In this document: positions 42,818 through 58,588 of the stretch, piece after piece
Numbering within the stretch: the stretch's first letter is position 1
How the letters are laid out: each line of letters opens with the position of its first letter
DNA from: Pseudomonadota bacterium
GTDB lineage: Bacteria > Pseudomonadota > Gammaproteobacteria > Acidiferrobacterales > Acidiferrobacteraceae
Direction: 5' to 3'
DNA length: 64,000 nucleotides
Assembly: GCA_021794595.1 (NCBI GenBank)
Contig: JAJYQN010000117.1
Location: forward strand, 1,977-65,976
Made by a program: the position numbers and the translations under genes
The notes under the pieces: model-generated
Told to the model about the DNA's origin: nothing
What the model saw: the letters and a program-made list of their open reading frames with translations, nothing else
Database searches by the model: none

Positions 42818-43678
42818 CTAGCCGCGTCCCGCGGACGCAGACCCCGTAAAGCGCAGAGAGAGGTCGAGGGCGCGGACGTTTTTGGTGATATCGCCGATCG
42901 ATATGAAGTCGACACCCGTCTCGGCCACGGCGGCGAGGGCGTCTAAGGTGATGCCGCCCGAGGCCTCGAGTTGGGCTCGGCCTTGGCTACGCGCGACCGC
43001 TAAACGCAGATCCGGCACCGAGAAATTATCAAGGAGGATGCGCGTTGCCCCGGCGGCGAGGGCCTGATCGAGTTCAGCTAGGGTCTCGACCTCGATCTCG
43101 ACTAATTTGCCCTGGGCGATCTTCTGCGCATGACGTAATGCAGCCACGATGGATCCGGCGGCGGCGATGTGGTTCTCTTTGATCAGTACGCCGTCATACA
43201 GGCCGAGACGATGGTTTTGACAACCCCCGCAGAGCGCTGCGTACTTTTGCGCCAAGCGCAGGCCCGGAAGCGTCTTGCGGGTATCGAGAATGCGGGTCTT
43301 GGTGTGGGTGATCCGGTCGGCGTAGCGGCGCGCGGCAGTTGCGGTGCCGGAAAGGACTTGAACGAAGTTCAGCGCGGTGCGTTCGCCGGTGAGTAGGGCG
43401 CGGGCATCCCCGGAGAGTTCGCACAGCGTCATACCGGCGGAAACCCGGTCCGAGTCCTGGGCGTGCCACTGAATCTCACAGTGCGGATCAAGACGTCGGA
43501 ACGTGGCCTCAAACCACGCCTGGCCGCACAAAACACCGTCCTCGCGCGTGATAAGCGCCGCTTGAACGAGCCCCTCTGGCACCAGAAGCGCGGTCAGATC
43601 GCCTGATCCTGTATCTTCCTCCAAGGCGGCGCAAACGGCTTTTTCAACAACCGATGATGTGAGATACGAGGTGAACAC
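42818..43678 (-). CDS. nadC: nicotinate-nucleotide diphosphorylase (carboxylating)
   Basis: ALEEDTGSGDLT, ERTALNF, RKTLPGLR and KENH motifs. I chose GTG 43678 with GGGAGG 5 nt upstream, giving 286 aa. The ATG at 43729 is the alternative. Confidence 0.9.
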   Translation of the reverse strand: MFTSYLTSSVVEKAVCAALEEDTGSGDLTALLVPEGLVQAALITREDGVLCGQAWFEATFRRLDPHCEIQWHAQDSDRVSAGMTLCELSGDARALLTGERTALNFVQVLSGTATAARRYADRITHTKTRILDTRKTLPGLRLAQKYAALCGGCQNHRLGLYDGVLIKENHIAAAGSIVAALRHAQKIAQGKLVEIEVETLAELDQALAAGATRILLDNFSVPDLRLAVARSQGRAQLEASGGITLDALAAVAETGVDFISIGDITKNVRALDLSLRFTGSASAGRG

Positions 43679-43727
43679 AGTTGCCTCCCAAAAATGCCAT
43701 GGCTTGATTGCAAATAGGGTTGGACCC

Positions 43728-43763
43728 AAAGGCCGGGTATCCCTAAAAGGCCGGGTATCCCTA
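43728..43763. repeat. perfect 18-bp tandem duplication (AAAGGCCGGGTATCCCTA x2)
   Basis: Read directly from the sequence. Copy 1 is 43728-43745 and copy 2 is 43746-43763, about 50 bp upstream of the proposed nadC start. Confidence 0.9.
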
Positions 43764-44342
43764 ATGGGTGTCCGTGCTCGTCCTCGAGCGCGGACTTATG
43801 GGGGTGACAGTTGGGCGTCAGAACGCGGCCATCCTCTTGCCCCATAAGCCCTTTTTGCGGGCCCACGACCGCCTTATACCTGATTAAGTCGCCTTTAGGC
43901 GCCGGTAGAGCGGGCGTTGAGTGGATGATGGGCCCAGGAGGGTTTCCTGTCCGAAAGATTACGTGACGCCGTAGTCTAGGTGCAACATTTTCTTATGATC
44001 GGGGATATCAAGATCAGTGCGGGTCTCCCATTCTTTTGAGGCCAAATCTAGAAATGGAGCCTGCTTGCGACTGCTCGCCGGTTCCCGAAGGGTGCTCTCT
44101 ACTGCCTCCCGTTTGGTCTGTGCAGGGCTAAGGTCGTCACTTCCCGCGTCACGTCTAAATCTCCCATGGGGCGCACCTCCTGACGCATACCACGACTGAT
44201 AGGGAGGACGAGCGTTGCGCAGGAGATAGAAGCTGCGCCTTCTTGACGGCTTATGAAACCAGGATATAAGCTATCTAGATTATAAAGACTTGATCAGACT
44301 TTTTGAATAAAACGTAGGCGTGAGGCCTTAGGGGGACAGATC

Positions 44343-44813
44343 ATGCGGATGGGTGAAGGGGTGGAGTGGGGGCTTCATTGTTGTTTAACGCTCGCCTGGA
44401 TTGGCGACCAAGAGCCTATTTCGACCGCGAAACTTGCCGAGCACTTCGGCGTTCCCCCCACCTATCTCAATAAGTGTCTGCAGGCCCTTGTTCGCGCCGA
44501 GATTCTAAGGTCCGTATCCGGGGCGCGTGGCGGGTTTTGCTTGGCGAAACGGCCAGATGAATTGACTTTTCTGGATGTTGTGATCGCGGTCGAGGGGCCG
44601 GATGCAGCCTTTCGTTGTGCCGAGATCCGACAGAATGAGGGCTGCTCGCGCGACGAAAAGAGGCGGCCTTGCGCTATTGCAGGGGCCATGCAGGAAGCAG
44701 AGGAGGCGTGGCGCATAGCACTCAAGGCCCAGACTTTGGCGGATATTATGCAAAAGGCCCCCGCAGCCGCGGCCGAACGCACGCGCCGTTGGTATCAAGA
44801 GGTGCGACGCTAG
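44343..44813 (+). CDS. Rrf2 family transcriptional regulator
   Basis: The wHTH ISTAKLAEHFGVPPTYLNKCLQALVRAEILRSVSGARGG is the typical Rrf2 N-terminus. Confidence 0.88.
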   Translation: MRMGEGVEWGLHCCLTLAWIGDQEPISTAKLAEHFGVPPTYLNKCLQALVRAEILRSVSGARGGFCLAKRPDELTFLDVVIAVEGPDAAFRCAEIRQNEGCSRDEKRRPCAIAGAMQEAEEAWRIALKAQTLADIMQKAPAAAAERTRRWYQEVRR

Positions 44814-44897
44814 CTACATGGCTATGAAGCTACCGGGCTTGGCGGCTTCATAATCTGGATAACATGTATCCTTAAATACGCAAAAGGGCAGACCCTT

Positions 44898-46100
44898 ATG
44901 GATGACAAACAGAGTGGTGAGCGTGCCCGGGAAAGAGGCGATTTGATGCCAGTTGTGATCTTGGTGCTGGGTACTTTCGCGGTGGGCACGGATGCCTTTA
45001 TCGTGGCCGGATTTTTGCCCTCCCTGGCTGCGAGCCTGCATGTCTCTGTGGGTGTGGCTGGACAAAGCGTCACGGTCTTTGCGATAACCTATGCTGTGTT
45101 TGCCCCTATCCTAGCTACGCTCGCCGCGAAGGTGCCTCGTCGCAAGCTGTTAGTGGCTGCACTTGTCGTTATAGCTGGCGCAAATCTTGGCACCGCAGTG
45201 GCCGCCGACTTTACCGTCCTGATGGCGTTTCGCACCTTGGCCGCACTGGGGGCCGCCGCGTATACGCCTACTGCAGGCGCGGTGGCGGCATGGCTTGCGC
45301 CCTCCGCTTTGCGCGGCCGGGCCTTGGCCCTGGTTCTCGCCGGTTTGACCCTGGCTACTGTGTTGTCTGTGCCAGCTGGGGATCTCATCAGCGACTGGGC
45401 GAGCTGGCGGGCTGCCCTGGGTTTGGTGGCCGGGCTTGCGTTTTTGAGTAGCGTTGCTGTGTTACGGATCCTGCCGGTTCTTGGGGGTGGCCCGTTTGTT
45501 CCGCTCCGCGATCGGCTGGCTGTTTTGCGTAAGCCGGGTGTTGTCAGCATATTGCCGCTTACCGTACTCGGTATGGCGGCGAGCTATGCCGTTTACGCGT
45601 ATTCGGTACCGGCGCTGCGCGGCGTGGGGGTGGCGCCTGGGGCAATAGGCGGGTTTTTGTTTCTCTATGGCCTTGGGGCGGTGCTCGGCAGTGCCCTGTG
45701 CGGCTACGTCACCGACCGGTGGGGAGCTGTCCGCATGCTATCTGCGACCTATAGCGTCATGACGCTCGCTCTTGGGCTGCTCGGCTGCTTAGCGCTTCAC
45801 GCGCCCTCTCGGGGCATCATATCGACGGCGGTTGTGGGTCTTCTGGTTAGTCTCTGGGGCGCGAGTACATGGTCGCAGACTCCGCCCCAGCAGCACCGGC
45901 TTATCGCTGCCGCACCGGAGAGTGTATCGCTCGTCTTGTCCTTGAACGCCTCGGCAATTTATTTAGGAATCGGATCGGGTACGGCCTTGGGTGGTGTCGC
46001 GCTTACAGCTGGCGTGCCTGTGCTCTATGGGGTCGCTACCGTGATCGCAGCGCTCACTGGCCTTTATCTCATCGGCACGTTACGGCGGTACCGGGTATGA
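44898..46100 (+). CDS. MFS transporter
   Basis: 400 aa with about 12 hydrophobic segments. The N-terminus GTFAVGTDAFIVAGFLPSLA is typical of the Bcr/CflA-like drug-resistance MFS group. Confidence 0.85.
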   Translation: MDDKQSGERARERGDLMPVVILVLGTFAVGTDAFIVAGFLPSLAASLHVSVGVAGQSVTVFAITYAVFAPILATLAAKVPRRKLLVAALVVIAGANLGTAVAADFTVLMAFRTLAALGAAAYTPTAGAVAAWLAPSALRGRALALVLAGLTLATVLSVPAGDLISDWASWRAALGLVAGLAFLSSVAVLRILPVLGGGPFVPLRDRLAVLRKPGVVSILPLTVLGMAASYAVYAYSVPALRGVGVAPGAIGGFLFLYGLGAVLGSALCGYVTDRWGAVRMLSATYSVMTLALGLLGCLALHAPSRGIISTAVVGLLVSLWGASTWSQTPPQQHRLIAAAPESVSLVLSLNASAIYLGIGSGTALGGVALTAGVPVLYGVATVIAALTGLYLIGTLRRYRV

Positions 46101-46266
46101 CGAGGCCTGAGCGCTGCCAGCCCTCACAAAGCGTCCCGTGCATGATGGCGCAATTCCCACAGGGGGCTTGCGGCGGTTTTTGCCACCACGGAGGGTGCAC
46201 CCTACGGGTGGCGCGCCGGGAGACTTGGACGTCTCATGGTGCATGCTAAGGGTCAGCACACGTTTG

Positions 46267-46887
46267 TCATGGGGCGCAATCGTATGGCCATGCTGTCATA
46301 GCGAGCGCACCGATTCTCTGTAACTGTTCGTAAGACGCACCATCTATCGCTTGCACGGACATCCCCTGTATGACGGCGGCATAAAATGTCGCTAATCCTT
46401 CGGTATCAGTATCGGGCGGGATCTCTTGCCTTTGCACGGCCAATGCCAACCGTGACGCGATGGCGTCTTGGCCCATACGACGTAGCGCGGCCGTCGTTTT
46501 AGCCACGGATCGGTTCTCTTGTGCACAACGAAGAGATCCGCTGGCGGTAAGACAACCGGCTGGCCACTCACTGCGCGTAAATTGCTGAGCAGCTGCTGTT
46601 AATAACTGCCCTATCACATCCCGAATTGCGCCTGGAGCCTCGAGCGCACGCGTAAGAAAATCAGTATGCGTCGAAAGATAGAGCTCAAGAACGTCACGGT
46701 AGAGCTGTTCCTTTGAGCCAAAAGCGGCATAAAGACTGGGTGCGGTGATGTGCATAGCCTTCGTGAGCTGGGCGATGGCTGTGCCTTCGTACCCTTGGCG
46801 CCAGAAGAGAACCATAGCTTTTTCTAAGGCCTTGGCCTTATTGAAGATCCGAGGACGACCCCTCGGGCGCCCCACGACCTTTTTCAT
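46267..46887 (-). CDS. TetR/AcrR family transcriptional regulator
   Basis: The HTH is GRPRIF..ALEKAMVLFWRQGYEGTAIAQLTKAMHITAPSLYAAFGSKEQLY. Confidence 0.88.
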   Translation of the reverse strand: MKKVVGRPRGRPRIFNKAKALEKAMVLFWRQGYEGTAIAQLTKAMHITAPSLYAAFGSKEQLYRDVLELYLSTHTDFLTRALEAPGAIRDVIGQLLTAAAQQFTRSEWPAGCLTASGSLRCAQENRSVAKTTAALRRMGQDAIASRLALAVQRQEIPPDTDTEGLATFYAAVIQGMSVQAIDGASYEQLQRIGALAMTAWPYDCAP

Positions 46888-47103
46888 AGCCTATGCTCCA
46901 TGATCTTAAAACGAAACGCCATCATATCCCCTACGTAGCAGATTGGTCCGCTGAGCGCGCTTTTACCTCTTGCCTTACCCAAAGACCCTGGGTCGCCGCC
47001 TTATCTTTCGTCATATCCTGAGAATACCTGCGACCAACTGTTTACCGGGAGTTTCTTAGGCCATACGCAGACGGCAACGTTAATGTCCCGTCCTTCGCGC
47101 TCA

Positions 47104-47132
47104 TTGACAAGACAGATCAACTATATTATATA
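47104..47132 (+). promoter_or_regulatory. putative sigma-70 promoter (TTGACA - 17 nt - TATATA) for the dehydrogenase-GST genes
   Basis: TTGACA at 47104-47109 and TATATA at 47127-47132. AAGGAG at 47152-57 precedes ATG 47163. A T/A-rich near-palindrome overlaps the -10 box and could be an operator. Confidence 0.45.
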
Positions 47133-47162
47133 ACGATCACTACATATAGAAAAGGAGACGCC

Positions 47163-48194
47163 ATGCCCCCTGCGCCGCGCGCGTATCAAATCAAAAAAAC
47201 CGGTGTGCGTGGACAGCTCACGCCATCGCGACTGACCATGCCAACGTTGGCGCCCCATCAAGTCCTCGTGCAGGTGTGCGCGGCAAGCTTGAATTACCGG
47301 GATCTCTTGGCTCTACACAATCCGACTGACTTAAAGGAAGGCCTCATACCGCTCTCCGACGCCGCGGGCGTCATTTCCGCTATAGGTCCTGACGTTACCA
47401 CTTGGCGAGTCGGCGATCGAGTGTCCCCTAGCTTTTTCCCGCATTGGGATAGCGGGCCGTTTCGTGCCTCCTACTTACAGTCTGCCCTAGGAGGCGGACA
47501 AACGGATGGGGTGTTATGCGATGAGATTATCGTTTCCGATAATGCTCTCGTCGAAATCCCCGCTTATCTCACGCTGTCCGAGGCCGCAACGCTCCCTTGT
47601 GCTGCCGTAACGGCGTGGCACGCCCTATTTGTACGCGCCCACCTCACAAGCGGGGACACCGTGCTCATCCAAGGGACTGGTGGGGTCGCAATGTTCGCCT
47701 TGCAGCTCGCCACAGCCCATGGCGTACGAGCGATCGTCGTTTCGTCATCAGATCAGAAGCTTGAGCGCGCCGTAGCCCTAGGCGCCTGGAAGACCATCAA
47801 CTACCACAAAGAGCCTCGGTGGGATCGGGCCGTGCACCGTTTCACCGATAACGAAGGAGTCTCTTGCGTTTTGGAATTGGGTGGCCCTGATACGTTCGAC
47901 CGATCCTTAGCGGCGGTTGCCGGTGGCGGAACCATTGCGCAGATCGGCGTCCTCACAGGTTTTGGCCCCCAGGCCAACCTCTTACCCTTGCAGTTTAAGA
48001 ATGCCACGATTTGCGGGATCTGTGTCGGCTCGCGCCAGCACTTTTCTGATCTGCATCGGTTTATGGCCACACACACCATAAGACCCGTAATCGATCGAAC
48101 TTTTGATTTTGGGGAGGCGCCTTCCGCCTACGCCTATCTGGAGAGTGCCCAGCACTTTGGCAAGGTGGTTATCGATATGGGCAACGATGGTTAA
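47163..48194 (+). CDS. zinc-type/MDR NAD(P)-dependent alcohol dehydrogenase or quinone oxidoreductase
   Basis: MDR pattern: VCAASLNYRD, the GroES-like domain and the Rossmann motif IQGTGGVAMFALQLA. Confidence 0.87.
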   Translation: MPPAPRAYQIKKTGVRGQLTPSRLTMPTLAPHQVLVQVCAASLNYRDLLALHNPTDLKEGLIPLSDAAGVISAIGPDVTTWRVGDRVSPSFFPHWDSGPFRASYLQSALGGGQTDGVLCDEIIVSDNALVEIPAYLTLSEAATLPCAAVTAWHALFVRAHLTSGDTVLIQGTGGVAMFALQLATAHGVRAIVVSSSDQKLERAVALGAWKTINYHKEPRWDRAVHRFTDNEGVSCVLELGGPDTFDRSLAAVAGGGTIAQIGVLTGFGPQANLLPLQFKNATICGICVGSRQHFSDLHRFMATHTIRPVIDRTFDFGEAPSAYAYLESAQHFGKVVIDMGNDG

Positions 48195-48309
48195 GAAAAT
48201 TACCCTGGTGCGTCAAGAAACCAAGGTACACCAACCTGACGTTCTAGAACACTTGCAACATCGTCGCGTGGCAAAGACGTCAAGCGGCCCACAACGGAGG
48301 ATCTCTCAC

Positions 48310-48924
48310 ATGATCATACTTTACCGGAACACCGCGAGCCCCAACATACAGAAGATCGCCCTCATGCTCACCGAAACTCGCTTATCTTATATCGCTCAAA
48401 GCGTCGACCGGGAGCCTGATGGAGCGTTTGTTGGCAGTTTTCGCGCAATCAATCCGAATGCCACCGTACCCGCCATCCTTGATCAGGATAACGGTGTTTC
48501 CGTCTTCGAATCGGGAGCTATCCTATACTACCTAGCGGAAAAATCCGGTCAATTCCTACCCAAAGAGATCAAGGCGCGCACAGAGGTCATGAAATGGCTT
48601 ATGTTCGAAGTGGCCAATGTGGGACCTGTCATGGGCGAGCTGTACCACGGGCTCCTCATGGATAGCCCCGCGTTCACTGACCACCTTCTACCGCGATATC
48701 GGGACAAGCTCTCTCGCTTCTGCTCCCTACTTGATGAACAACTCAAAGGGCAACGCTACTTGTGCGGCGACTACTCTATTGCCGATATCGCACTCTACCC
48801 TTGGTGCGGCATCTTAGGAGACATCGCCGACATCGATCTTCATGACTACGCCCACCTCCATCGATGGGCTACCGACATAAATATGCATCCCGCTACCCAA
48901 TTGATCAATACGACAAAGTTGTAA
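48310..48924 (+). CDS. glutathione S-transferase family protein
   Basis: VPAILDQDNGVSVFESGAILYYLAEK is a GST_N thioredoxin-fold motif, followed by a GST_C region. ATG 48310 has GGAGG about 10 nt upstream. The upstream part of the track ORF was rejected. Confidence 0.85.
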   Translation: MIILYRNTASPNIQKIALMLTETRLSYIAQSVDREPDGAFVGSFRAINPNATVPAILDQDNGVSVFESGAILYYLAEKSGQFLPKEIKARTEVMKWLMFEVANVGPVMGELYHGLLMDSPAFTDHLLPRYRDKLSRFCSLLDEQLKGQRYLCGDYSIADIALYPWCGILGDIADIDLHDYAHLHRWATDINMHPATQLINTTKL

Positions 48925-48929
48925 TACTG

Positions 48930-49221
48930 GCCCTTAGGACACCTTTGCCAAAATCGTACCCCGTGGCCTTTTTCACCTGAGGGGCTGTGGAAACGGGCAC
49001 AGTTACCATGATGCGTCGGAAAATTGAAATGCAGCGCCATAATATTTCCGTTTTCATTGCTCTCTCATTTTCTGCGCGCCAATGAGGCAGGGAGGGAGGT
49101 TTTCGAAGAACATCGGCATTTGATTGCGTTAGAGTGACCGTTTTAGAGCCGCCTTGCCATGAGCCTTGCGGCGGTGGACGGCAAGGGGCGCTTTTGCCAG
49201 ATCAATCGCAATCGCTGTCAT
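48930..49221 (-). mobile_element. IS110-family transposase N-terminal remnant (degenerate)
   Basis: The minus strand reads MTAIAIDLAKAPLAVHRRKAHGKAALKRSL*RNQMPMFFENLPPCLIG. This resembles the IS110 pattern IGIDLAKNVFQLHG...GKVVLRKRLSRAQLLPFFANLPPCLIGMEAC. It then breaks down through stops and frame loss. Confidence 0.6.
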
Positions 49222-49739
49222 CTTTATTGTCGCGCCCTCTTTATTCGAGTGGTACGTCCCGCTCTTCACTTTGGCACAGCTGATGCCATTAGGGGAGGGG
49301 TCGACCATCTCATTAGGGAGCGACGAGGGCGCGGTGTCCGCGGGTGCCGTCGCCTTGCGTCCCAGGGAGGGGCCTGGCGGGCGGCTGTGGGCCGCCTAGC
49401 CCAGGACGGCGATATGCATCCTGGTACCGAGAATCAACGCTCTCCATCTTTGTGGAAGGCAACAGGCCTGCGCGGGGTATTGCGGGTGTGCGGGAGGCTC
49501 GATTTTTTCGGACACGGTTACGAGACAAGCCGCCATAAAAAAATCATGATGATAGTTTACACCGGCAGGAAAAATGCGATGACTATCAAAGCAATGCAGG
49601 CAGTGCGCTTTCAATCGAATCAAGGCGGGCTAGGAGCAGGTATTCTGGTAGGGAAGACGGAGCTTGTTTGATGGAGATAGCAGGTCCTGCTACGCTGGTA
49701 TACCGTTTAGATAAAAATCGTTTTATGCACAACTGAAGG

Positions 49740-50444
49740 TTGCGGAGTTTATGCATCAGGAAATATTTGGGGGATAAACAGCCGATTTGGAGTGAAGGCG
49801 TGAGCGTAAACAGATATCATCTACCCGCAGCGGATTTTCTTATGAATATGGAGGTCGTTGACTGCAATCATCCGCAGATTCAGGACCTGGCAGCCTCTTT
49901 GTCCGGTCGGACACCCCTGCTAACGGCTAAAAACTGCTTTGATTGGGTGCGGGATCAGATCGAACACAGTATGGATTTTCGTCGTGAGGAGGTTGTCTGT
50001 AGGGCATCTGATGTGCTGCGTGTCGGCACCGGCTTGTGCTTTGCCAAGAGCCACTTATTGGTAGCCTTATGGCGCGCGAGCCGCATACCTGCCGGGTTTT
50101 GTTATCAACGATTAACGTTTGATGGTCCTCGTGCGCCCTATTGTACACACGGTTTCACTGCTGTCTGGCTAGATAATTGGGGCTGGTATCGTTGTGATGC
50201 GCGCGGCAACAGCAAGCCCAATATCCAGTGTGAATTCACACCCAAACGGGAGAACCTGGCCTACCCGACCATTCATAACGGCGAGATGACCCATCCTGAT
50301 GTTTGGGCAGAGCCTTGGCCGGATTTGATCGCAGCGATGGGGAAGCTGCAAACCATGTCGCAGTATCGGCGCTGTCCCATTGACGCCCGCCCGCCCGCTG
50401 CGGACTTATGCGTAAGTGAGTCTGCGGCGCCGAACATTGAATAG
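49740..50444 (+). CDS. transglutaminase-like cysteine peptidase family protein
   Basis: The Cys/His/Asp core is GTGLCFAKSHLLVALWRA...THGFTAVWL...RCDARG. The start is uncertain: TTG 49740, GTG 49800 or ATG 49842. Confidence 0.75.
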   Translation: MRSLCIRKYLGDKQPIWSEGVSVNRYHLPAADFLMNMEVVDCNHPQIQDLAASLSGRTPLLTAKNCFDWVRDQIEHSMDFRREEVVCRASDVLRVGTGLCFAKSHLLVALWRASRIPAGFCYQRLTFDGPRAPYCTHGFTAVWLDNWGWYRCDARGNSKPNIQCEFTPKRENLAYPTIHNGEMTHPDVWAEPWPDLIAAMGKLQTMSQYRRCPIDARPPAADLCVSESAAPNIE

Positions 50445-50458
50445 CATGGAGACGAACC

Positions 50459-51118
50459 ATGTACTGCCCCGGAACGTTTACGGAAACTCGTCCCGAAGTT
50501 TTACGGACACTGATTCAGCATTATCCCCTCGCAACCTTGATCACTATAGGAAGCGAGGGACCAGAGGCCGACCATATCCCGCTGTATCTCTTGCCCGGGG
50601 AGGGGCCCCATTATGTGTTGCAGGGACATGTGGCGCGCGCTAATCCGCTATGGCGAGAGGCGTCCCCGGGCAATGAGGTGTTGGTCATCTTCCAGGGGCC
50701 ACAACACTACATAAGCCCTTCTTGGTATGCCACAAAGGCGGAAAACGGCAGGGTAGTGCCAACTTGGAACTATGCCGTCGTCCACGTCCATGGGCTGCTT
50801 CACGTCAAGGACAATCCCGATTGGGTCCGGCAACAGATGGTCGGCCTGACCAGGCAGCAGGAGAGTCGCTTTGCGCGGCCCTGGCAGGTGGATAATGCGC
50901 CTCAGGGTTTCACGGAGTCGCTTATCGGACAGGTGGTGGGCACAGAAATCCCGATCTCGCGGTGGGCTGGTAAATGGAAGGTCAGCCAGAACCAGCCGCT
51001 TTCCAACCGTGACAGTGTCGGGGCGCACCTGGAGAGGCAAAATCAGTCTGGCTCTTTGGCTATGGCTGAATACGTTCTGGCCTGCGCAAAAAACGGGGAA
51101 AAGGACCATCCTGAATGA
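50459..51118 (+). CDS. FMN-binding negative transcriptional regulator (PaiB family)
   Basis: HIPLYL, QGHVARANPLW, FQGPQHYISPSWY and VPTWNY are PaiB-family motifs. Confidence 0.85.
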   Translation: MYCPGTFTETRPEVLRTLIQHYPLATLITIGSEGPEADHIPLYLLPGEGPHYVLQGHVARANPLWREASPGNEVLVIFQGPQHYISPSWYATKAENGRVVPTWNYAVVHVHGLLHVKDNPDWVRQQMVGLTRQQESRFARPWQVDNAPQGFTESLIGQVVGTEIPISRWAGKWKVSQNQPLSNRDSVGAHLERQNQSGSLAMAEYVLACAKNGEKDHPE

Positions 51119-51765
51119 CGACTCGTGTCGGTTTTTTGGTCTTCCCCGGCCTCCAGCTTTTGGATCTGGCGGGCCCGTATGAGATTTTTAGTGCCTTATC
51201 GGATTGTGAGGTGCATCTTTTCTGGAAAACCCGAGAGCCTTTGGCCTGTTCAGCAGGTATGCTATTTCAGCCGACGGCCACCCTCGACTACGGACTGCCG
51301 GTGGATGTTCTCTGTATACCCGGAGGCGTCGGTCTCAATGTTTTGTTGCAGGATGAGGAAATCCTAAGCTGGATACAGCGCCAGGCGGCAACGGCGCAGT
51401 TTGTCACCTCTGTATGCACCGGGGCGCTGTTGCTCGGTGTGGCAGGATTGCTCGCCGGACGGCGCGCGACAACACATTGGCGTTATTTTGATCTCCTCAC
51501 TGAATGTGGCGCCATACCTATCCGGGAGCGTGTGGTTCGGGACGGCAATCTGATCACCGGTGGCGGGGTTACTGCCGGGATAGACTTTGGTCTTGTGCTG
51601 ATTGCAGCCTTGCGTGGCCAAGGTGCGGCTGAAGAGATTCAGCTTGCCATGGAATATGCGCCGGAACCGCCTTTCCAGGCTGGTAGGCCGGATGATGCGC
51701 CCAGGGATGTCTGGAGGTCGTCCGATGCCGCACTGAAGCACTGCATGCCGAACGTGAACGGATGA
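51115..51765 (+). CDS. DJ-1/PfpI family protein (isocyanide hydratase-like subgroup)
   Basis: VGFLVFPGLQLLDLAGPYEIF, VTSVCTGALLLGVAGLLAGRRATTHW. ATGA overlap with the paiB-like gene. Confidence 0.85.
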   Translation: MTTRVGFLVFPGLQLLDLAGPYEIFSALSDCEVHLFWKTREPLACSAGMLFQPTATLDYGLPVDVLCIPGGVGLNVLLQDEEILSWIQRQAATAQFVTSVCTGALLLGVAGLLAGRRATTHWRYFDLLTECGAIPIRERVVRDGNLITGGGVTAGIDFGLVLIAALRGQGAAEEIQLAMEYAPEPPFQAGRPDDAPRDVWRSSDAALKHCMPNVNG

Positions 51766-52319
51766 TTGGGACCTGGCGGAATATTCCCCTTAGCTTGTCA
51801 GATAAGGGCGAAGACGTGATCTGCGCCCCCCTCGTTCGCGAACTAGGGCAGGACGACGATTTCGCTTATCGCTCACTTTGGCAGGATGCCATGCAGCAAC
51901 ACGCGCAGTATTTCCGCATAGCGGCGGGAGATGATGTTCCCGCGGCTATTCCCACGCGAGGAGCAAATGACAGCTTTACCTTAGGCGCCTTCGAGAAAAA
52001 TGTGCTAGTCGGGATTGTCAGTCTGGAGCGGGATCGCGGTCTGAAATTGCGGCATAAGGCGTTACTTTTTCGCATGTTCGTGGCGCCGGAGGCGGCCGGC
52101 CGTGGTCTCGGTAGGTCGCTTTTGCAGGCGGTGCTCTCCCGTGCACAGGAGATCGATAATTTACGGTCCGTTCATTTGACTGTTCTGGAGCGAAATCATC
52201 GGGCCCGAGCGCTGTATCGGTCGCTGGGTTTCGTAGATTTCGCACTGGAGCCAGATGCCGTTCACATGGACACAGATTATGTGGCTGAGGTACAAATGAT
52301 GCGATTCCTTGAAAGATGA
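51762..52319 (+). CDS. GNAT family N-acetyltransferase
   Basis: The acetyl-CoA binding motif is FVAPEAAGRGLGRSLL...RARALYRSLGF. ATGA overlap with the upstream gene. Confidence 0.8.
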   Translation: MIGTWRNIPLSLSDKGEDVICAPLVRELGQDDDFAYRSLWQDAMQQHAQYFRIAAGDDVPAAIPTRGANDSFTLGAFEKNVLVGIVSLERDRGLKLRHKALLFRMFVAPEAAGRGLGRSLLQAVLSRAQEIDNLRSVHLTVLERNHRARALYRSLGFVDFALEPDAVHMDTDYVAEVQMMRFLER

Positions 52320-52894
52320 ATACCGTGATGCTGATGCAGTATCAGATCGATGCTTTTAGTCACCGGGTTTTTTCTGGCAATCCGGCGGCTGTTATTCCTC
52401 TCGACCAGTGGCTCCCCGATTCGATTATGCAGGCCATTGCTGAAGAGAATAATCTCTCTGAGACCGCCTTTTATATCCCGGCAGAAAATTCTGGCACCTT
52501 CCATTTACGCTGGTTCACACCGGTGGCTGAAGTGGATTTGTGCGGCCACGCTACCCTAGCAACAGCACACGTTCTCTTTCACGAACGGGGATTTCAAGGG
52601 AATGGGACTACCTTCGAATCTGGGCGACCCTCGAGATGGCTCACTTGTGGTGGCCCCGATACGATTTGTCACGGCTATAAAGCTGGTTTTAGGCTTGATC
52701 ATTGGCCATACGGAGCGACAAGATGCGGTGGTGAAAGTTGCAGATCGACAGTGACACAGGCTTCACGTGGCTTTCACGTCGTCGCTGCGGCTCTTAGGGT
52801 TGCCCCCGTAATCGGTCGTAGTTATGGCGCGACTATCAAGGTCGGTGAAAGAGGTAGTGAAGACGCTTGCCCAGCCATGCACCCCAATGGTTGA
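52316..52894 (+). CDS. PhzF-family isomerase, recognisable N-terminal part only; C-terminal part aberrant and short (probable truncated or decayed gene)
   Basis: The first ~90 aa are typical PhzF: QIDAFSHRVFSGNPAAVIP...SETAFYIP...LRWFTPVAEVDLCGHATLATAHVL. The rest of the 192-aa ORF is Cys/Arg/Gly-rich and does not read like PhzF. Family members are usually about 260-300 aa. Confidence 0.55.
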   Translation: MNTVMLMQYQIDAFSHRVFSGNPAAVIPLDQWLPDSIMQAIAEENNLSETAFYIPAENSGTFHLRWFTPVAEVDLCGHATLATAHVLFHERGFQGNGTTFESGRPSRWLTCGGPDTICHGYKAGFRLDHWPYGATRCGGESCRSTVTQASRGFHVVAAALRVAPVIGRSYGATIKVGERGSEDACPAMHPNG

Positions 52895-52909
52895 ATAGGA
52901 CGGACGCCC

Positions 52910-54328
52910 ATGGATCTTATGCTTGTAAAATGCGGTACATGCTTTCGAAGCTCGCTGAATTGCGACACCGCTTTTCTTCTCTCAGACCCAGAAAGCGCGG
53001 GCATTTTCCTGGAAAGAGTACGGACGGACCTTGAAGAGCAGGGCGTAGGCAGTGTAGATGTCGTATTCAATCACGCCAAACGCGTGGCCAAGTGGCGCTA
53101 TGCGACATCCGATGACGACGATGACAGCGTGCTTCTCGACCCATTACTGAGAATCAGTAACCTGCGGATACCAGCCGCGACCGTGTTCCGAATCGAGGGC
53201 ACCATCACGGCATCAGAGTTTCCGGCCTCGATATTTCATGAGCGCAGTCTCGAACTTTACGTCTACGATAATCTCTTTGGTATGTTGGAGTGGGATTTTA
53301 CCCTCGGATGCGCGGCGCGCGAAATCACGGCCGCAAAGAGGCCGGCAATAGAGCTCTTGCTGCATGCCATTTCCGTGGAATTGATGGAGGCTATCACTCA
53401 GACCGACATATTCAGTCAGATTCATGCCGCGGCCGCGAGTGCTTTGCCGGTCAAGGCCTTGAGGGGGCGAAGGCTTGGCCCCTTGTATCTGGAAAGAGAG
53501 CAGGATTACGTCGATCTCTTGGTGCGCAAGAAAGAAACTAAGGCTGCAACGCGGCTTCCTGTTATCGTGCCGAGTATTTTATGGACAGCGCGGCTCTATA
53601 TCTGGCCGCATGGCGGAGTGAGCCAGGAACAAAAGCAATTTTTGCCAGCGTTGTTGCACAAGGATACGGTCCGCGTTGACGCGGGCGATAGCCGTATTTA
53701 TTGCGCGTGGGGCTCGAGCGCCATCGCAAGTGACACCGAGATCGATGCCGGGAGCATACAAGCCCTTGCGGGGATCCGCAGGGAGCTTCAGTACATCTAT
53801 GCCGTAACAAACGAGTATGCAAAAAGGACGGGTAACGCCTATTTTCGGTCTTTGGGTGGACTTGTGCAGACGGGCACGGACGTGTCGGATTGGCTGGAAA
53901 GCGCTAAGACCCACCTAAGCCAGATGCTATACATCTGCAAAGATCGGGACATGGGCTTGCAGGGCTGGAAGAGCGAATGCTTTGTCGCGTATATGCGGCT
54001 ATGGAAGGTCGAGCCCTATATCGCCACCACGATCAGCAAGGTCGATACCGCGCGCAATCTCGTCGCAGCGATTCGGGCCAAACAGGGCAGTCGAATGCAG
54101 AGGCAGATCAAGAATATTCTCGCAGCTCTCGGACTCATGGAGGCGCTCGGCGTCATTACCGAAATCACCGAGTATTCCCATAGCCCCGGGTATCGCCCCA
54201 GCGCCGATTGGGGAATTCTTCGTGTTTTTCACTATTGGAGGCCCGATGCGACGATCTCGGTAGCGGGTCTTTTGATACTATCATTTTTAGTGGCGGCGGT
54301 CCTGTACATAGGGAATTTGAAGGAGTGA
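52910..54328 (+). CDS. protein of unknown function, 472 aa, with a C-terminal transmembrane anchor
   Basis: Long uninterrupted ORF. The C-terminal hydrophobic helix is ISVAGLLILSFLVAAVLYIG. It is preceded by the amphipathic or second hydrophobic segment ILAALGLMEALGVITEI. I recognise no family motif. It is coupled to the next gene. Confidence 0.7.
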   Translation: MDLMLVKCGTCFRSSLNCDTAFLLSDPESAGIFLERVRTDLEEQGVGSVDVVFNHAKRVAKWRYATSDDDDDSVLLDPLLRISNLRIPAATVFRIEGTITASEFPASIFHERSLELYVYDNLFGMLEWDFTLGCAAREITAAKRPAIELLLHAISVELMEAITQTDIFSQIHAAAASALPVKALRGRRLGPLYLEREQDYVDLLVRKKETKAATRLPVIVPSILWTARLYIWPHGGVSQEQKQFLPALLHKDTVRVDAGDSRIYCAWGSSAIASDTEIDAGSIQALAGIRRELQYIYAVTNEYAKRTGNAYFRSLGGLVQTGTDVSDWLESAKTHLSQMLYICKDRDMGLQGWKSECFVAYMRLWKVEPYIATTISKVDTARNLVAAIRAKQGSRMQRQIKNILAALGLMEALGVITEITEYSHSPGYRPSADWGILRVFHYWRPDATISVAGLLILSFLVAAVLYIGNLKE

Positions 54329-54332
54329 ATTG

Positions 54333-55745
54333 ATGGATACGCCGTACCTGAAGCGGTTGCTAGAGGCCTCGGAGCAGCATGTACTGCCCCCGGCGGTTCA
54401 GGAGGCGACCGCGAAAATCGCGACTGAACGCGCCTGGGTTGAGGAGTTGCTGCAACAAGGGCATGTCAATTCGATTTACGGGTTCAACACCGAGCTTGGA
54501 CATCGCGACTTCGTGACGGTCGATTCGAAGGCTGGCCCCGATTTCCAGAAAGCGATCTTCGCAAGCCATCACGTGAGGCCGAGTTATGGGCGCGGCGCGT
54601 ACCCACGGGCCGTGGCCTCGCTCATCGGCTATGTGAAGGTCTTTCAATTGAGTCGGGGCGGGAGCGGTATTTCCCCCGAGGCCTACAAGCGGATCATGGA
54701 GAAGGTGAGCGATCCCGAGTTTTGTCCCCGTATCCCGGCCGGCCAGTCGTATTCCTCGGGCGATGTCCTGCCCGCGACCCACTGGGTCAGCGCGGTCTTC
54801 GATCTCGATAGCTCGGCGCCGTACGCGTTAAGACCAGGCGACATGATCGCCTTGATCAACGGCAATTTCGTCCACACAGCCTTAGGTGCGGACAATTATC
54901 GGGAATTGAAGGGGCTTATTGAGTACGTAGTCGTAAGCGGCGCCTATGCCGGCCGCCTCTGTGAACTGGCCCGGATTAACTACCTGCGGGATTTGCCGCG
55001 GGGTAAGGAAGCGGCGCAAAAGGCTCTCGATTACCTCGCGCGTACGGCCGATGGCCAGAAGAGTCTTTCGACCTCTCCTCAGCGTGCGGTCTCGATCCGG
55101 GCCATCCCCGATGTGATCATCGAGTTTTGTAGCGCGCACCACGCGCTTGGCCAGGAAGTCGAGGCGCTGATCCCGGCGCAGTCGGCAAACCCCTTATTCG
55201 ATCTCGCGCGCAAAGAGGTCTTTTCGAGCCCCGGTTTCCTGGCGATCGGACTGGCCTTGGCACAGAATAAGATGATCGAGACCTTGCTGCTGGTGTTGCG
55301 GGTATCGGTCGCCAGGCTCAGTTTCATTTTGTCGGGTCGGGTGGCGGGCATCCCCGAAGATGGCTGGGACCCGACCGCGGACGCGGGCCTCGGTTTTATC
55401 CAGGTCCCCAAGGAATTGACAGCCGTGGTGGAGTCCGCATACCAGACCTACGGACGGCGCGGGTTTGCCGCGGGGGGTGCCACCTCCTACGGTATTGAGG
55501 ACTTATGGACCCAGGGCGAGGCCTTGTCGCGAGATATCCATAAGTTGAGCCTTATCGTCCGGGACGTATTGCGGCGCGAAATCGCGGTCTACGAGGTCAT
55601 GAGCCGGCGCTGTGCGCCCTCCCGATCGATGGCTCTCTGTCCAAAGCGGCCGCCGAAGGACTTAGGGATGGTGGCTGAGCTGCACTTTGTCGAGGATGTT
55701 TTGCTGGGACTTAAGACCCTGACGGATGAAGGTTTTGGGGATTAG
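54333..55745 (+). CDS. aromatic amino acid ammonia-lyase/aminomutase (HAL/PAL, MIO) family protein, divergent
   Basis: It aligns by eye along its whole length with P. putida HutH: IYGFNTELG (AYGINTGFG), QLSRGGSGI (SLSRGFSGI), GQSYSSGDVLPATH (GSVGASGDLAPLAH), ALINGN (ALLNGT), VSIRAIPDV (YSLRCQPQV) and SANPLF (SDNPLV). ATG 54333 has GAAGGAG 7 nt upstream. Confidence 0.85.
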   Translation: MDTPYLKRLLEASEQHVLPPAVQEATAKIATERAWVEELLQQGHVNSIYGFNTELGHRDFVTVDSKAGPDFQKAIFASHHVRPSYGRGAYPRAVASLIGYVKVFQLSRGGSGISPEAYKRIMEKVSDPEFCPRIPAGQSYSSGDVLPATHWVSAVFDLDSSAPYALRPGDMIALINGNFVHTALGADNYRELKGLIEYVVVSGAYAGRLCELARINYLRDLPRGKEAAQKALDYLARTADGQKSLSTSPQRAVSIRAIPDVIIEFCSAHHALGQEVEALIPAQSANPLFDLARKEVFSSPGFLAIGLALAQNKMIETLLLVLRVSVARLSFILSGRVAGIPEDGWDPTADAGLGFIQVPKELTAVVESAYQTYGRRGFAAGGATSYGIEDLWTQGEALSRDIHKLSLIVRDVLRREIAVYEVMSRRCAPSRSMALCPKRPPKDLGMVAELHFVEDVLLGLKTLTDEGFGD

Positions 55746-55921
55746 CGCGCAGGGCCTCGCGGCGCATTTCGGGCGATCTTATGAGAAGGGCAGGCCCCGG
55801 GTCGGGCGTATCCGAGGGCGATCCGCCTTTTGCCAAGGGATCGCGCGTGGCGCCTGGTTCGCCCGGGTGAGCGCAAGGCCCTAGTCGCGCGTCCTGCGAT
55901 CGCGTTTCCGGGGCCTTCTGC

Positions 55922-55950
55922 CTTGAAACTCCGGCCTTTCTCCCCCATCT
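55922..55950 (+). promoter_or_regulatory. sigma-32 (heat-shock) promoter of clpB
   Basis: CTTGAAA (55922-28), a 14-nt spacer, then CCCCATCT (55943-50), 31 nt upstream of the clpB ATG. This matches the RpoH consensus CTTGAAA-N13-15-CCCCATNT. Confidence 0.72.
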
Positions 55951-55981
55951 GTGAGGGCATCTGACGAAGTAGGTAGCCCTC

Positions 55982-58588
55982 ATGCGCATGGACAAACTCA
56001 CCAATCGGTTCCAACAGGCGTTGGCCGATGCCCAATCTCTGGCCATTGGTAGGGATAACCAATTCATCGAGCCTATCCATTTGCTCGCCGCCCTGCTTGA
56101 TCAAGAAGGGGGAGGGGTGCGGCCCTTGCTCGAAAAGGCGGACGTGGCCGTCGACGCCTTACGCACTCAGCTCAATCAGGCGCTCGATCGCTTGCCGAAA
56201 GTCGAGGGATCGGAGGGCGAGGTCCATATCGGGAACGACCTGTCCCGACTCTTGAACCTGACCGATAAGTATGCCCAAAAGCGTGGCGACCAATATATCG
56301 CGAGCGAGCTCTTTTTGTTGGCGGCTATCGAGGACAAGGGCGATCTCGGTCGCCTCCTCCGTGAGGCCGGCGCATCGCGGGCTGGACTCGAGAAGGTCGT
56401 GGACGAATGGCGCGGGGGGCGCAAGGTGGATGACCAAAACGCCGAGCAGCAACGTGGTGCGCTCGACCGCTACACGATCGATTTAACCGAGCGGGCGGCG
56501 CAAGGGAAGCTTGATCCGGTCATTGGCCGCGACGACGAGATTCGCCGCGCGATCCAGGTCTTACAGCGCCGAACCAAGAATAATCCGGTGTTGATTGGGG
56601 AGCCCGGCGTTGGCAAGACCGCCATTGTCGAGGGCCTGGCGCAGCGCATCGTGAACGGCGAGGTGCCCGAAGGGCTCCGTGGGCGTCGTCTGTTGGCGCT
56701 GGATCTCGGGGCCTTGATCGCCGGGGCGAAGTTCCGAGGCGAGTTTGAGGAGCGCCTGAAGGCGGTCTTGACCGATCTTGGGAAGCAAGAGGGTCGGGTC
56801 ATCCTCTTCATTGACGAATTGCATACGATGGTTGGGGCCGGAAAGGCCGAAGGCGCTATGGATGCTGGCAATATGCTCAAACCGGCGCTCGCGCGCGGCG
56901 AACTCCATGCCATAGGTGCCACGACCCTTAACGAATACCGGCAGTACATTGAAAAGGATGCAGCACTAGAGCGTCGGTTTCAAAAGGTGTTGGTCGATGA
57001 GCCGACCGTCGAGGATACGATCGCGATCCTGCGCGGCCTCAAGGAAAAGTACGAGGTCCACCATGGGGTAAACATCCTGGACCCGGCCTTGGTGGCGGCG
57101 GCCACCTTGTCGTATCGCTACATAACGGATCGCCAACTGCCGGACAAGGCCATAGATCTTGTGGACGAAGCCGCTGCTCGGATTCGTATGGAGATCGATT
57201 CCCGTCCGGAATCGATGGATCGTCTCGATCGTCGTTTGATTCAGTTGAAGATCGAGCGGGTCGCCTTACGTAAAGAGACTGACGAGGCCTCGCGTAAGAG
57301 GCTTGCGGCCTTGGAGGAGGAGATCAGTAAGCTCGAACGGGAATACGGGGAGTTAGAGGAGATCTGGCGGACGGAGAAGGCCGATCTTCAAGGCGAGCAG
57401 CACATCAAGGAGGAACTGGATCGCGCCCGAGTCGAGATCGAGACGGCACGCAGGGCCGGGGACCTGGGCCGGATGTCGGAGTTGCAGTACGGGCGGATAC
57501 CGGAACTCGAAAAACAGTTGGCATCGCGCGCGCGGCCCGTAGCCCCGAAACTGTTGCGTAAAGAGGTGGGCGAAGAGGAAGTCGCCGAGGTAGTATCGCG
57601 TGCCACCGGGATCCCGGTCTCGCGCATGATGGAAGGCGAACGCCAGAAGCTCTTACGTATGGAAGAAGAGCTGCATCGCCGGGTCGTAGGCCAACAGGAG
57701 GCAGTCCAGGCGGTGGCCAACGCGATTCGGCGTTCGCGCGCCGGTCTCTCCGATCCGCATCGCCCAAACGGCTCATTTCTCTTTCTTGGGCCAACGGGCG
57801 TTGGCAAGACCGAGTTGTGCCGGACGCTCGCCTCGTTTCTGTTCGATGCGGATGACGCCATGGTTCGGATCGACATGTCCGAGTTTATGGAGCGGCATTC
57901 GGTGGCTCGTCTGATCGGCGCGCCCCCCGGTTATGTCGGCTACGAACAAGGCGGTTACCTGACGGAGGCCGTGCGCCGGCGGCCCTATTCGGTCATTTTG
58001 TTAGACGAGATCGAAAAGGCGCACTCGGATGTGTTCAATGTCCTTTTGCAGGTTTTAGACGAAGGACGGCTTACCGATGGCCAAGGCCGGACCGTGGATT
58101 TTCGCAATACCATCATCGTGATGACGTCCAATCTGGGTTCGCAGGTCATCCAGGAGCTCGCGGGCGAGGATAATTACCAGCGCATGAAGCGCGAGGTCAT
58201 GGACATCGTCGGTCAGCACTTCCGGCCGGAGTTCATCAATCGTGTGGACGACGTCGTGGTGTTCCATCCCTTGGGACGAGACGATTTGAAGCGGATTACC
58301 CGCATTCAGCTGGGTTATTTGGTCGAGCGTCTGAAGGCGCGGGATCTTCGGTTGGATGTGACCGAGCCGGCGATAGAGAGATTAGCGCAGGCCGGTTTCG
58401 ATCCGGTCTACGGGGCGCGACCCTTAAAACGCGCCGTGCAGCAGTATTTAGAGAACCCGCTTGCCGAGGAGATATTGAAGGGGCAGTTCGCCCCGGGTGA
58501 TGGCATCGAGGTTGGGGTGAAGGACGACCGATTCACCTTTTCAGCTCGGCCCGGGGGAGGGGGTGACCGGAGCGTGCGGACGGCTTAA
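55982..58588 (+). CDS. clpB: ATP-dependent chaperone ClpB
   Basis: [39 protein letters not shown] closely resembles the E. coli ClpB N-terminus. Two AAA+ modules and a long middle coiled-coil. 868 aa. Confidence 0.96.

Follow-up and report, generated by a model that had tools for sequence, protein, structure and literature searches.

A rare two-gene module pairing a predicted CorA-type-fold membrane protein with a divergent histidine ammonia-lyase-like enzyme in at least five bacterial phyla

CorA-fold proteins are channels for magnesium, cobalt, nickel and zinc, and recently they have also been recognised as CRISPR effectors. Enzymes that use the 4-methylideneimidazole-5-one (MIO) group, namely the histidine, phenylalanine and tyrosine ammonia-lyases (HAL, PAL and TAL) and the aminomutases, are soluble homotetramers. 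The CorA effector of type III CRISPR systems is reportedly paired genetically with an enzyme that degrades S-adenosylmethionine-AMP (SAM-AMP), either NrN or SAM-AMP lyase. A further group of HAL-like enzymes, ergothionase and histidine betaine lyase, are MIO-less trimethylammonia-lyases that need the trimethylammonium group of their substrates (bioRxiv 10.64898/2026.04.22.720169). Here, we describe a gene pair in a 64,000-nt stretch of an Acidiferrobacteraceae genome (assembly GCA_021794595.1, contig JAJYQN010000117.1), hereafter the window, in which the gene for a predicted CorA-type-fold membrane protein (gene 1) directly precedes the gene for a HAL-like MIO-family enzyme (gene 2). Like the type III CRISPR CorA effector and its partner, the pair would combine a CorA-superfamily membrane protein with an enzyme that converts a small molecule. 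In contrast to that system, it has no nearby CRISPR-Cas genes or signal generator, no PADLOC match and no defence-island context, and its enzyme belongs to the unrelated MIO lyase family. In the literature searched, we found no MIO enzyme that needs a membrane partner, and no description of the pairing or of MIO clades with a Ser-Ser-Gly triad; a preliminary description of this DNA had likewise known of no system with this composition. The parts are of known structural kinds, whereas neither has the family of gene 1 been classified nor the clade of the lyase characterised, and their obligate pairing is undescribed in that literature.

Gene 1 (52910..54328, + strand) encodes 472 amino acids and gene 2 (54333..55745, + strand), which starts with ATG, encodes 470. 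The coupling junction spans 54319..54335 on the + strand: a Shine-Dalgarno sequence for gene 2, GAAGGAG at 54319-54325, lies inside gene 1 and is followed by the TGA of gene 1 (54326-54328), a 4-nt spacer and the ATG of gene 2 (54333-54335). The open reading frame (ORF) coordinates, the 4-nt gap and the internal Shine-Dalgarno sequence given in the preliminary description are all seen in the sequence. Both proteins are kept at 60-89 % identity in relatives; therefore, the two ORFs are real genes and not chance ORFs. Scans of 52300-56100 returned zero promoter-like sites and two weak terminator-like sites, both within the genes, and shuffled sequences gave more of the latter. Judged by its sequence, the pair appears to be a translationally coupled, self-contained two-gene module, and the coupling that had been proposed earlier agrees with the 4-nt junction, with the internal Shine-Dalgarno sequence and with the tight junction kept across loci.

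The linkage of the two genes extends to distant bacteria. A gene 1-family member lies directly upstream of the lyase gene and on the same strand at 59 of 63 testable loci from genome and metagenome scans, the two sets being partly redundant. The genome scan, in which lyase motifs were searched in 185,579 species genomes (one per species), gave 36 loci; 33 of these have enough upstream sequence, and a hidden Markov model (HMM) of the gene 1 family found a member immediately upstream in 30. The metagenome scan used the lyase alignment as its query, the gene 1 alignment having no sufficiently conserved stretch, and located a gene 1 member upstream in 29 of 30 testable loci. The preliminary description had proposed, as a check, to ask if homologues of both genes are found together in unrelated genomes, and the outcome is strongly positive. 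The pairing spans at least five phyla. The hosts in the genome scan belong to the Alpha-, Beta- and Gammaproteobacteria, Bacillota and Bacteroidota, with one cyanobacterium and two actinomycetes. The pair is present in the culturable genera Hyphomonas, Henriciella, Roseibium, Virgibacillus, Rossellomorea and Neolewinella, which make it directly testable.

The pairing was also seen when the search started from the other gene. Every contig retrieved via gene 1 homologues carries the lyase gene 3-4 nt downstream, and the flanking genes vary. Lyase relatives with only ~35 % identity, one from a metagenome and one from Neolewinella, are preceded by a protein of ~440-480 amino acids with no Pfam match, and both of these proteins were recovered by the gene 1-family HMM. 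The distance from gene 1 to the lyase gene ranges from -23 to +19 nt in 33 of 33 loci measured, and most junctions are ATGA/GTGA overlaps or gaps of 1-6 nt. In addition, the pairwise identities of the two proteins are correlated (Pearson r = 0.83 over 300 pairs; none of 2000 Mantel permutations was as high), and a gene 1 protein and its lyase mostly have the same nearest neighbour. An all-against-all comparison of the ORFs from 35 loci revealed no third conserved gene. The two genes have passed to descendants, moved between genomes and diversified as a unit. Of four distant gene 1 representatives looked up in the reverse direction, P0037, P0039 and P0041 each have a lyase gene of the clade next downstream. 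P0061 (L085 52-1582; 394 amino acids), a borderline member and the weakest of the family, has an overlapping 117-aa gene there and no lyase, and remote relatives of the gene 1 protein may have other partners.

Gene 1 had been placed in no recognised family, and this is borne out by searches with the single sequence and with profiles, which gave no match in Pfam, NCBIfam, PADLOC or the PDB sequences. The family is small. A word-indexed search of 5.8 billion proteins found 9 clusters of relatives, an exhaustive profile search of 1.84 billion representatives found 29, and the third round of a word-indexed search with a broad alignment gained one protein only. None of the 29 representatives contains a Pfam domain. 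We used an AlphaFold2 model of gene 1 built with 29 diverse sequences as input, which has a predicted local distance difference test score (pLDDT) of 82.4 and a predicted template modelling (TM) score of 0.77. An earlier model built from nine close homologues (pLDDT 52) was discarded, as its Foldseek matches are meaningless. When the accepted model was compared with the PDB by Foldseek, the top 47 matches were all CorA, ZntB or Mrs2 structures (best E = 8e-5, probability 1.0, ~300 aligned columns), no significant match fell outside this superfamily, and the best two matches in BFVD, a library of viral structures, were CorA-like transporters. The loose likeness to CorA suggested in the preliminary description consequently holds at the level of the fold.

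With CorA, ZntB and Mrs2 (metal ion transporter superfamily; PF01544), the model shares an N-terminal alpha/beta domain in the cytoplasm, a bundle of helices, a very long stalk helix that runs into the first transmembrane helix (TM1), a short external loop, a second transmembrane helix (TM2) and termini on the inside. Unlike them, gene 1 has no G-x-N motif and no detectable sequence similarity to CorA-type proteins; its external loop is longer (~23 residues) and carries a D, G, D, P-D motif of its own, its cytoplasmic domain exceeds theirs in size and has an insert at residues 182-217, and its gene is obligately linked with that of an enzyme. The alpha/beta domain at the N terminus of the model is followed by helices at residues 280-315, 322-349 and 352-364, a helix of 57 residues (367-423), a short helix in the loop and a last helix at 445-466. 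The predicted cytoplasmic domain (residues 1-366; 52910..54007, + strand) is an alpha/beta sandwich with a helical bundle, in which the insert 182-217 is modelled with low confidence. It contains the Asp run noted earlier, at residues 68-72, and the conserved motifs FR, DN..G...W, LWT.R, WG.S and D...GLQG.

The membrane part begins with the stalk helix, which continues without a break in the model into TM1 (residues 367-423, TM1 core about 399-423; 54008..54178, + strand). This more polar helix corresponds to the second amphipathic or hydrophobic segment that had been described ahead of the C-terminal hydrophobic helix, and the latter was also found. In a column profile of 68 non-redundant partners, basic residues at 392, 395 and 398 precede TM1, G408 is 84 % conserved, and positions 411, 414 and 418 in its outer half are polar or acidic. 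The external loop (residues 424-446; 54179..54247, + strand) has conserved D431, G435, D438, P445 and D446 in the same profile; G435 is 94 % conserved and position 446 is always D, N or E. The loop takes the position of the GMN/MPEL region of CorA, without a G-x-N. TM2 (residues 447-465) and a short cytoplasmic tail follow (54248..54325, + strand), with positions 466-469 basic in most members of the family. Hydropathy and the model agree on the two C-terminal transmembrane helices, and basic residues stand at both of their cytoplasmic ends. On the model, the gene 1 product is predicted to be an inner-membrane protein with both termini in the cytoplasm, a CorA architecture and an acidic outer mouth, and it would represent a new, unclassified family in the CorA structural superfamily, in which the acidic loop replaces the GMN filter.

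The preliminary description had taken gene 2 for a full-length, divergent member of the MIO family. This agrees with a match to PF00221 (E = 8.8e-26, 91 bits against a cut-off of 27.3) that aligns residues 23-413 with profile positions 20-433 of 466, and with scores far under the cut-offs of the HutH models (TIGR01225, 50.2 bits against 539.15; NF006871, 62.3 bits against 524). A profile made from an alignment of 22 clade members and searched against the PDB sequences aligns over its full length with Pseudomonas putida HAL (HutH; PDB 1GKM/1B8F; E = 7e-34), the best solved relative; ergothionase (6S7J) is also among the matches. Neither hutU nor hutI lies near the pair in the window, and no hut family is among the recurrent neighbour families of 28 loci. 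The absence of a hut, nonribosomal peptide synthetase (NRPS) or polyketide synthase (PKS) context had been noticed before, and it extends from the window neighbours to these recurrent families. That gene 2 is an ordinary HutH for histidine utilisation which happens to stand beside an unrelated membrane protein is scarcely credible: its best solved match is indeed HAL, but the model scores, the low identity to HAL, the motifs peculiar to the clade and the lack of a hut operon speak against it, and strict coupling to gene 1 is not a feature of hut operons. We ruled this candidate out by the model scores and the context.

The predicted MIO triad and the following Asp, Ser141-Ser142-Gly143-Asp144 (54753..54764, + strand), align with Ala142-Ser143-Gly144-Asp145 of HAL. 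In the clade, Ser141, Gly143 and Asp144 are invariant, and position 142 is Ser in 20 of 22 members and Cys in the remaining 2; the Ser143Cys mutant of HAL stays active. Ser-Ser-Gly counts as an accepted MIO triad (PMC9002059). Tyr49 (54477..54479, + strand), which corresponds to Tyr53, the catalytic base in HAL, is invariant in the clade, as is R256, which aligns with the carboxylate-binding R283. In total, the clade keeps the equivalents of HAL Y53, H83, N195, Q277, R283, N313, F329 and E414. It shares with P. putida HAL an MIO-type triad followed by Asp and nearly all catalytic residues, and differs from it in having Ser-Ser-Gly (rarely Ser-Cys-Gly) in place of Ala-Ser-Gly, Val at the position of Tyr280 and a deletion of ~16 residues after the triad. 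From HutH it also differs in lacking a hut operon and in being coupled to a membrane-protein gene.

Since the triad is strictly conserved, a primary amine is indicated as the substrate. The clade resembles the MIO-less trimethylammonia-lyases in its HAL-like sequence, its place outside hut operons, imidazole-type substrates as predicted here and a genetically coupled partner (in their case periplasmic flavocytochrome reductases), but it has an MIO-competent triad, no signal peptide and a different partner; because those enzymes have no triad, the clade is not among them. From the aligned residues, gene 2 probably encodes an MIO enzyme that is competent for catalysis and has a primary amino acid, most plausibly a histidine-like one, as its substrate. 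We also considered that gene 2 might encode a 2,3-aminomutase whose beta-amino acid goes into a secreted or osmoprotective product, and gene 1 the exporter. The MIO family does include aminomutases, and the NCBIfam aminomutase and tyrosine-lyase models match gene 2 at 25-36 bits (cut-offs 501-800). Those for the phenylalanine and tyrosine aminomutases reach just 34-36 bits, however, and NRPS, PKS or tailoring genes do not recur nearby. In addition, the substrate motifs near H79 (S-H) and at E389-D390 are, by the HAL alignment and by what is generally known of the family, of the HAL type and not of the PAL, TAL or aminomutase type. An aminomutase is therefore very unlikely in our estimate.

From the two predicted proteins and their linkage, we tentatively favour an enzyme-coupled membrane complex of a cytoplasmic HAL-like deaminase and an oligomeric cation-type channel or gate with the CorA fold. 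The gene 1 and gene 2 proteins would form a membrane-associated complex, in which the lyase would release ammonium from histidine, or from a similar primary amino acid of the imidazole type, and leave the unsaturated acid. Opening of the channel or gate that the CorA-like partner would form may be tied to the substrate, the product or an ionic by-product of the enzyme, or the channel may deliver or vent one of these. The module would then serve its host as an accessory metabolic or ion-homeostasis device and not in defence. The pair defines a new family in the CorA superfamily, from which the GMN filter has been lost, and a new Ser-Ser-Gly MIO clade, and it points to a probable new functional link between the deamination of amino acids and the handling of ions or solutes at the membrane.

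Several observations weigh against an enzyme-coupled channel. The Foldseek TM-scores of the gene 1 model are low (0.23-0.40), which is what an elongated protomer with a hinge would be expected to give. At permissive thresholds, PF01544 and the solved CorA sequences did not match gene 1, and the gene 1-family profile searched against the PDB sequences gave only coiled-coil noise and did not reach CorA. The GMN signature (G-x-N; searched as G[MIV]N) is found near TM1 in 0 of 29 family members and nowhere in the column profile of the 68 partners. Because the CorA match is at the fold level only, the TM-scores are low and GMN is absent, a channel function is an extrapolation; moreover, the known CorA-type proteins conduct divalent cations and not ammonium or organic solutes. 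On the side of the enzyme, the substrate assignment draws on few aligned residues, and the equivalent of HAL Tyr280 is the invariant Val253, the one clear departure, so that the chemistry may differ from that of HAL. The rarity of the module (36 loci in 185,579 species genomes) and its lower GC content are also expected of an accessory stress or conflict module. Finally, the replacement of the gene 1 protein by a solute-binding protein, described below, is a single locus.

A more specific possibility is an enzyme-gated pore: a CorA-fold protein whose opening and closing would be controlled by what its MIO enzyme consumes or produces, or by the enzyme itself acting as a subunit. We regard this as doubtful. 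If true, it would be a two-protein switch for stress, signalling or abortive infection with no described counterpart, and its lyase would be the first of the MIO enzymes to have a membrane protein as obligate partner. Gating by a ligand or by an enzyme would also widen the known modes of CorA-type channel control.

In a few loci, a lyase of the clade stands beside another partner or beside none that we could detect. In a metagenome-assembled genome (MAG) of Phormidesmis (L040 512-2949), the start of the lyase gene is overlapped by a gene for a membrane-anchored OpuAC solute-binding protein (OpuAC, E = 3e-26), which an SBP_bac_3 protein precedes; the triad of this lyase is Ser-Cys-Gly. A coupled partner of this kind would fit the view that the partner of the lyase handles a small solute at the membrane. 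In two actinomycete loci (L013 6908-8008 and L043 4854-5954), the lyase is preceded by overlapping 366-aa proteins that are 57 % identical to each other. They share an 'APFM' strand in the N-terminal part and a 'WWHRL' motif, and their C-terminal part forms a hairpin of two helices. Their homology to the gene 1 family was not demonstrable by profile-profile comparison (probability 4 %), and they resemble gene 1 by architecture alone. A clade lyase on a high-GC metagenome contig (L069 2126-3703) has a Gly-Ser-Gly triad and a long N-terminal extension, and no gene 1-family ORF was detected upstream of it. In a Pseudomonadales MAG (L047 4560-5986), the gene 1 homologue is broken up into ORFs of 264 and 305 amino acids and the lyase ORF is short (393 amino acids); decay of this copy or a frameshift error in sequencing may be the cause.

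These varied membrane-anchored partners, the cyanobacterial OpuAC protein and the actinomycete hairpin protein, suggest that anchoring is a common need, and they bear on an alternative in which gene 1 does not conduct at all. As a tether or regulator only, it would bind the lyase through its cytoplasmic domain, keep it at the membrane or sequester it, and release or activate it on a signal, for example the cation status as sensed by the CorA-like domain. The tight coupling, the co-evolution of the two proteins and the absence of the GMN channel signature would all fit. The stretch from the stalk through TM1 and the loop to TM2 is, however, the best conserved part of the protein, and its glycine and its acidic or polar positions are needless in a mere anchor. 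We consider a plain tether rather unlikely.

The OpuAC locus also touches on a proposal in which the module turns over a histidine-derived solute such as ergothioneine, histidine betaine, thiohistidine or methylhistidine, which the membrane partner takes up or senses. In Acidiferrobacter, EgtC-like (GATase_4) and EgtB-like (DinB_2 plus FGE-sulfatase) genes adjoin the pair (L001 13127-15071, L002 3252-5196 and L006 738-1604): one lineage has both, another has a GATase_4 gene, and this adjacency was not seen in other phyla. A link to ergothioneine or thiohistidine chemistry is possible. Solute turnover would also fit HAL and ergothionase as the closest solved relatives, the betaine-type OpuAC partner with the SBP_bac_3 protein before it, and hosts that are often marine or halotolerant. 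Set against this, the characterised trimethylammonia-lyases are all without the MIO triad that the clade keeps (bioRxiv 10.64898/2026.04.22.720169), and the Egt and OpuAC adjacencies are few and non-recurrent. We judge this proposal quite improbable and retain the enzyme-coupled membrane complex as the favoured one.

The GC content is 0.53-0.58 over the pair and 0.60-0.64 in the flanks, and the window neighbours include a PhzF remnant, GNAT, DJ-1, PaiB-like and ClpB proteins. Between nadC (42818-43729, - strand) and the pair lies a variable block (about 43730-52900) with MFS, TetR, zinc-type dehydrogenase, GST, transglutaminase-like, PaiB-like FMN_bind_2, DJ-1/PfpI and GNAT genes and the PhzF remnant. 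The content of this block varies among Acidiferrobacter relatives, and the block is missing in one of them (L008). In the most distant Acidiferrobacter MAG (60 % identity), the order is nadC, gene 1, gene 2, clpB, with no insertion. Because the order nadC-pair-clpB is syntenic and the block is inserted upstream, the pair is resident backbone beside a variable region and not island cargo; within Acidiferrobacter it is vertical and syntenic down to 60 % identity. Consequently, of the earlier view of the pair as the last operon of a lower-GC island, the lower GC content stands and the island membership does not. The upstream phzF had been called broken, which is right: the PhzF-like ORF (52316-52894) matches just positions 1-89 of the 281 in the Pfam profile. 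A MAG contig (L015), which matches the 2.7 kb before this site at 97 % identity, has ~1.55 kb extra exactly at 52618/52619, which indicates either a deletion in the window or an insertion in L015.

The same surroundings argue on whether the pair is a conflict or abortive-infection module, in which a small molecule, either produced or eliminated by the MIO enzyme, would open a CorA-like effector in the membrane. The idea has a precedent in CorA-family effectors paired with a ligand-degrading enzyme, and it would account for a rare module that is patchy across phyla and lower in GC than its flanks. In a few loci (L001 and L087), transposase or toxin-antitoxin genes are close to the pair. On the other hand, zero PADLOC families match either protein at E <= 1, and a census of 128 neighbour proteins from 28 loci showed no Pfam family in more than three loci. 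These neighbours are mostly housekeeping or metabolic (tRNA synthetase, gyrase, DNA ligase and chorismate synthase among them) and, compared with PADLOC, show no defence-island enrichment, with scattered generic ATPase-type matches only. The lyase clade is absent from 2.9 million viral contigs. A conflict module would moreover be at odds with the lack of a sensor or signal-generating component and of a third conserved gene, and with the vertical, syntenic inheritance in Acidiferrobacter. The preliminary description had likened the pair to accessory, defence or signalling modules in islands; the blank PADLOC search, the housekeeping neighbours and the viral contigs do not sustain the defence reading. 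We rejected a defence island on the same three grounds, and we consider a conflict module in any setting improbable.

On the other side of the pair, clpB starts at 55982. When the clpB segments of the Acidiferrobacter relatives L001 and L008 were compared with the window by BLAST, a second, clpB-like region with 65-70 % DNA identity appeared at 23200-24520, and this is presumably another Clp/Hsp100-type AAA+ gene.

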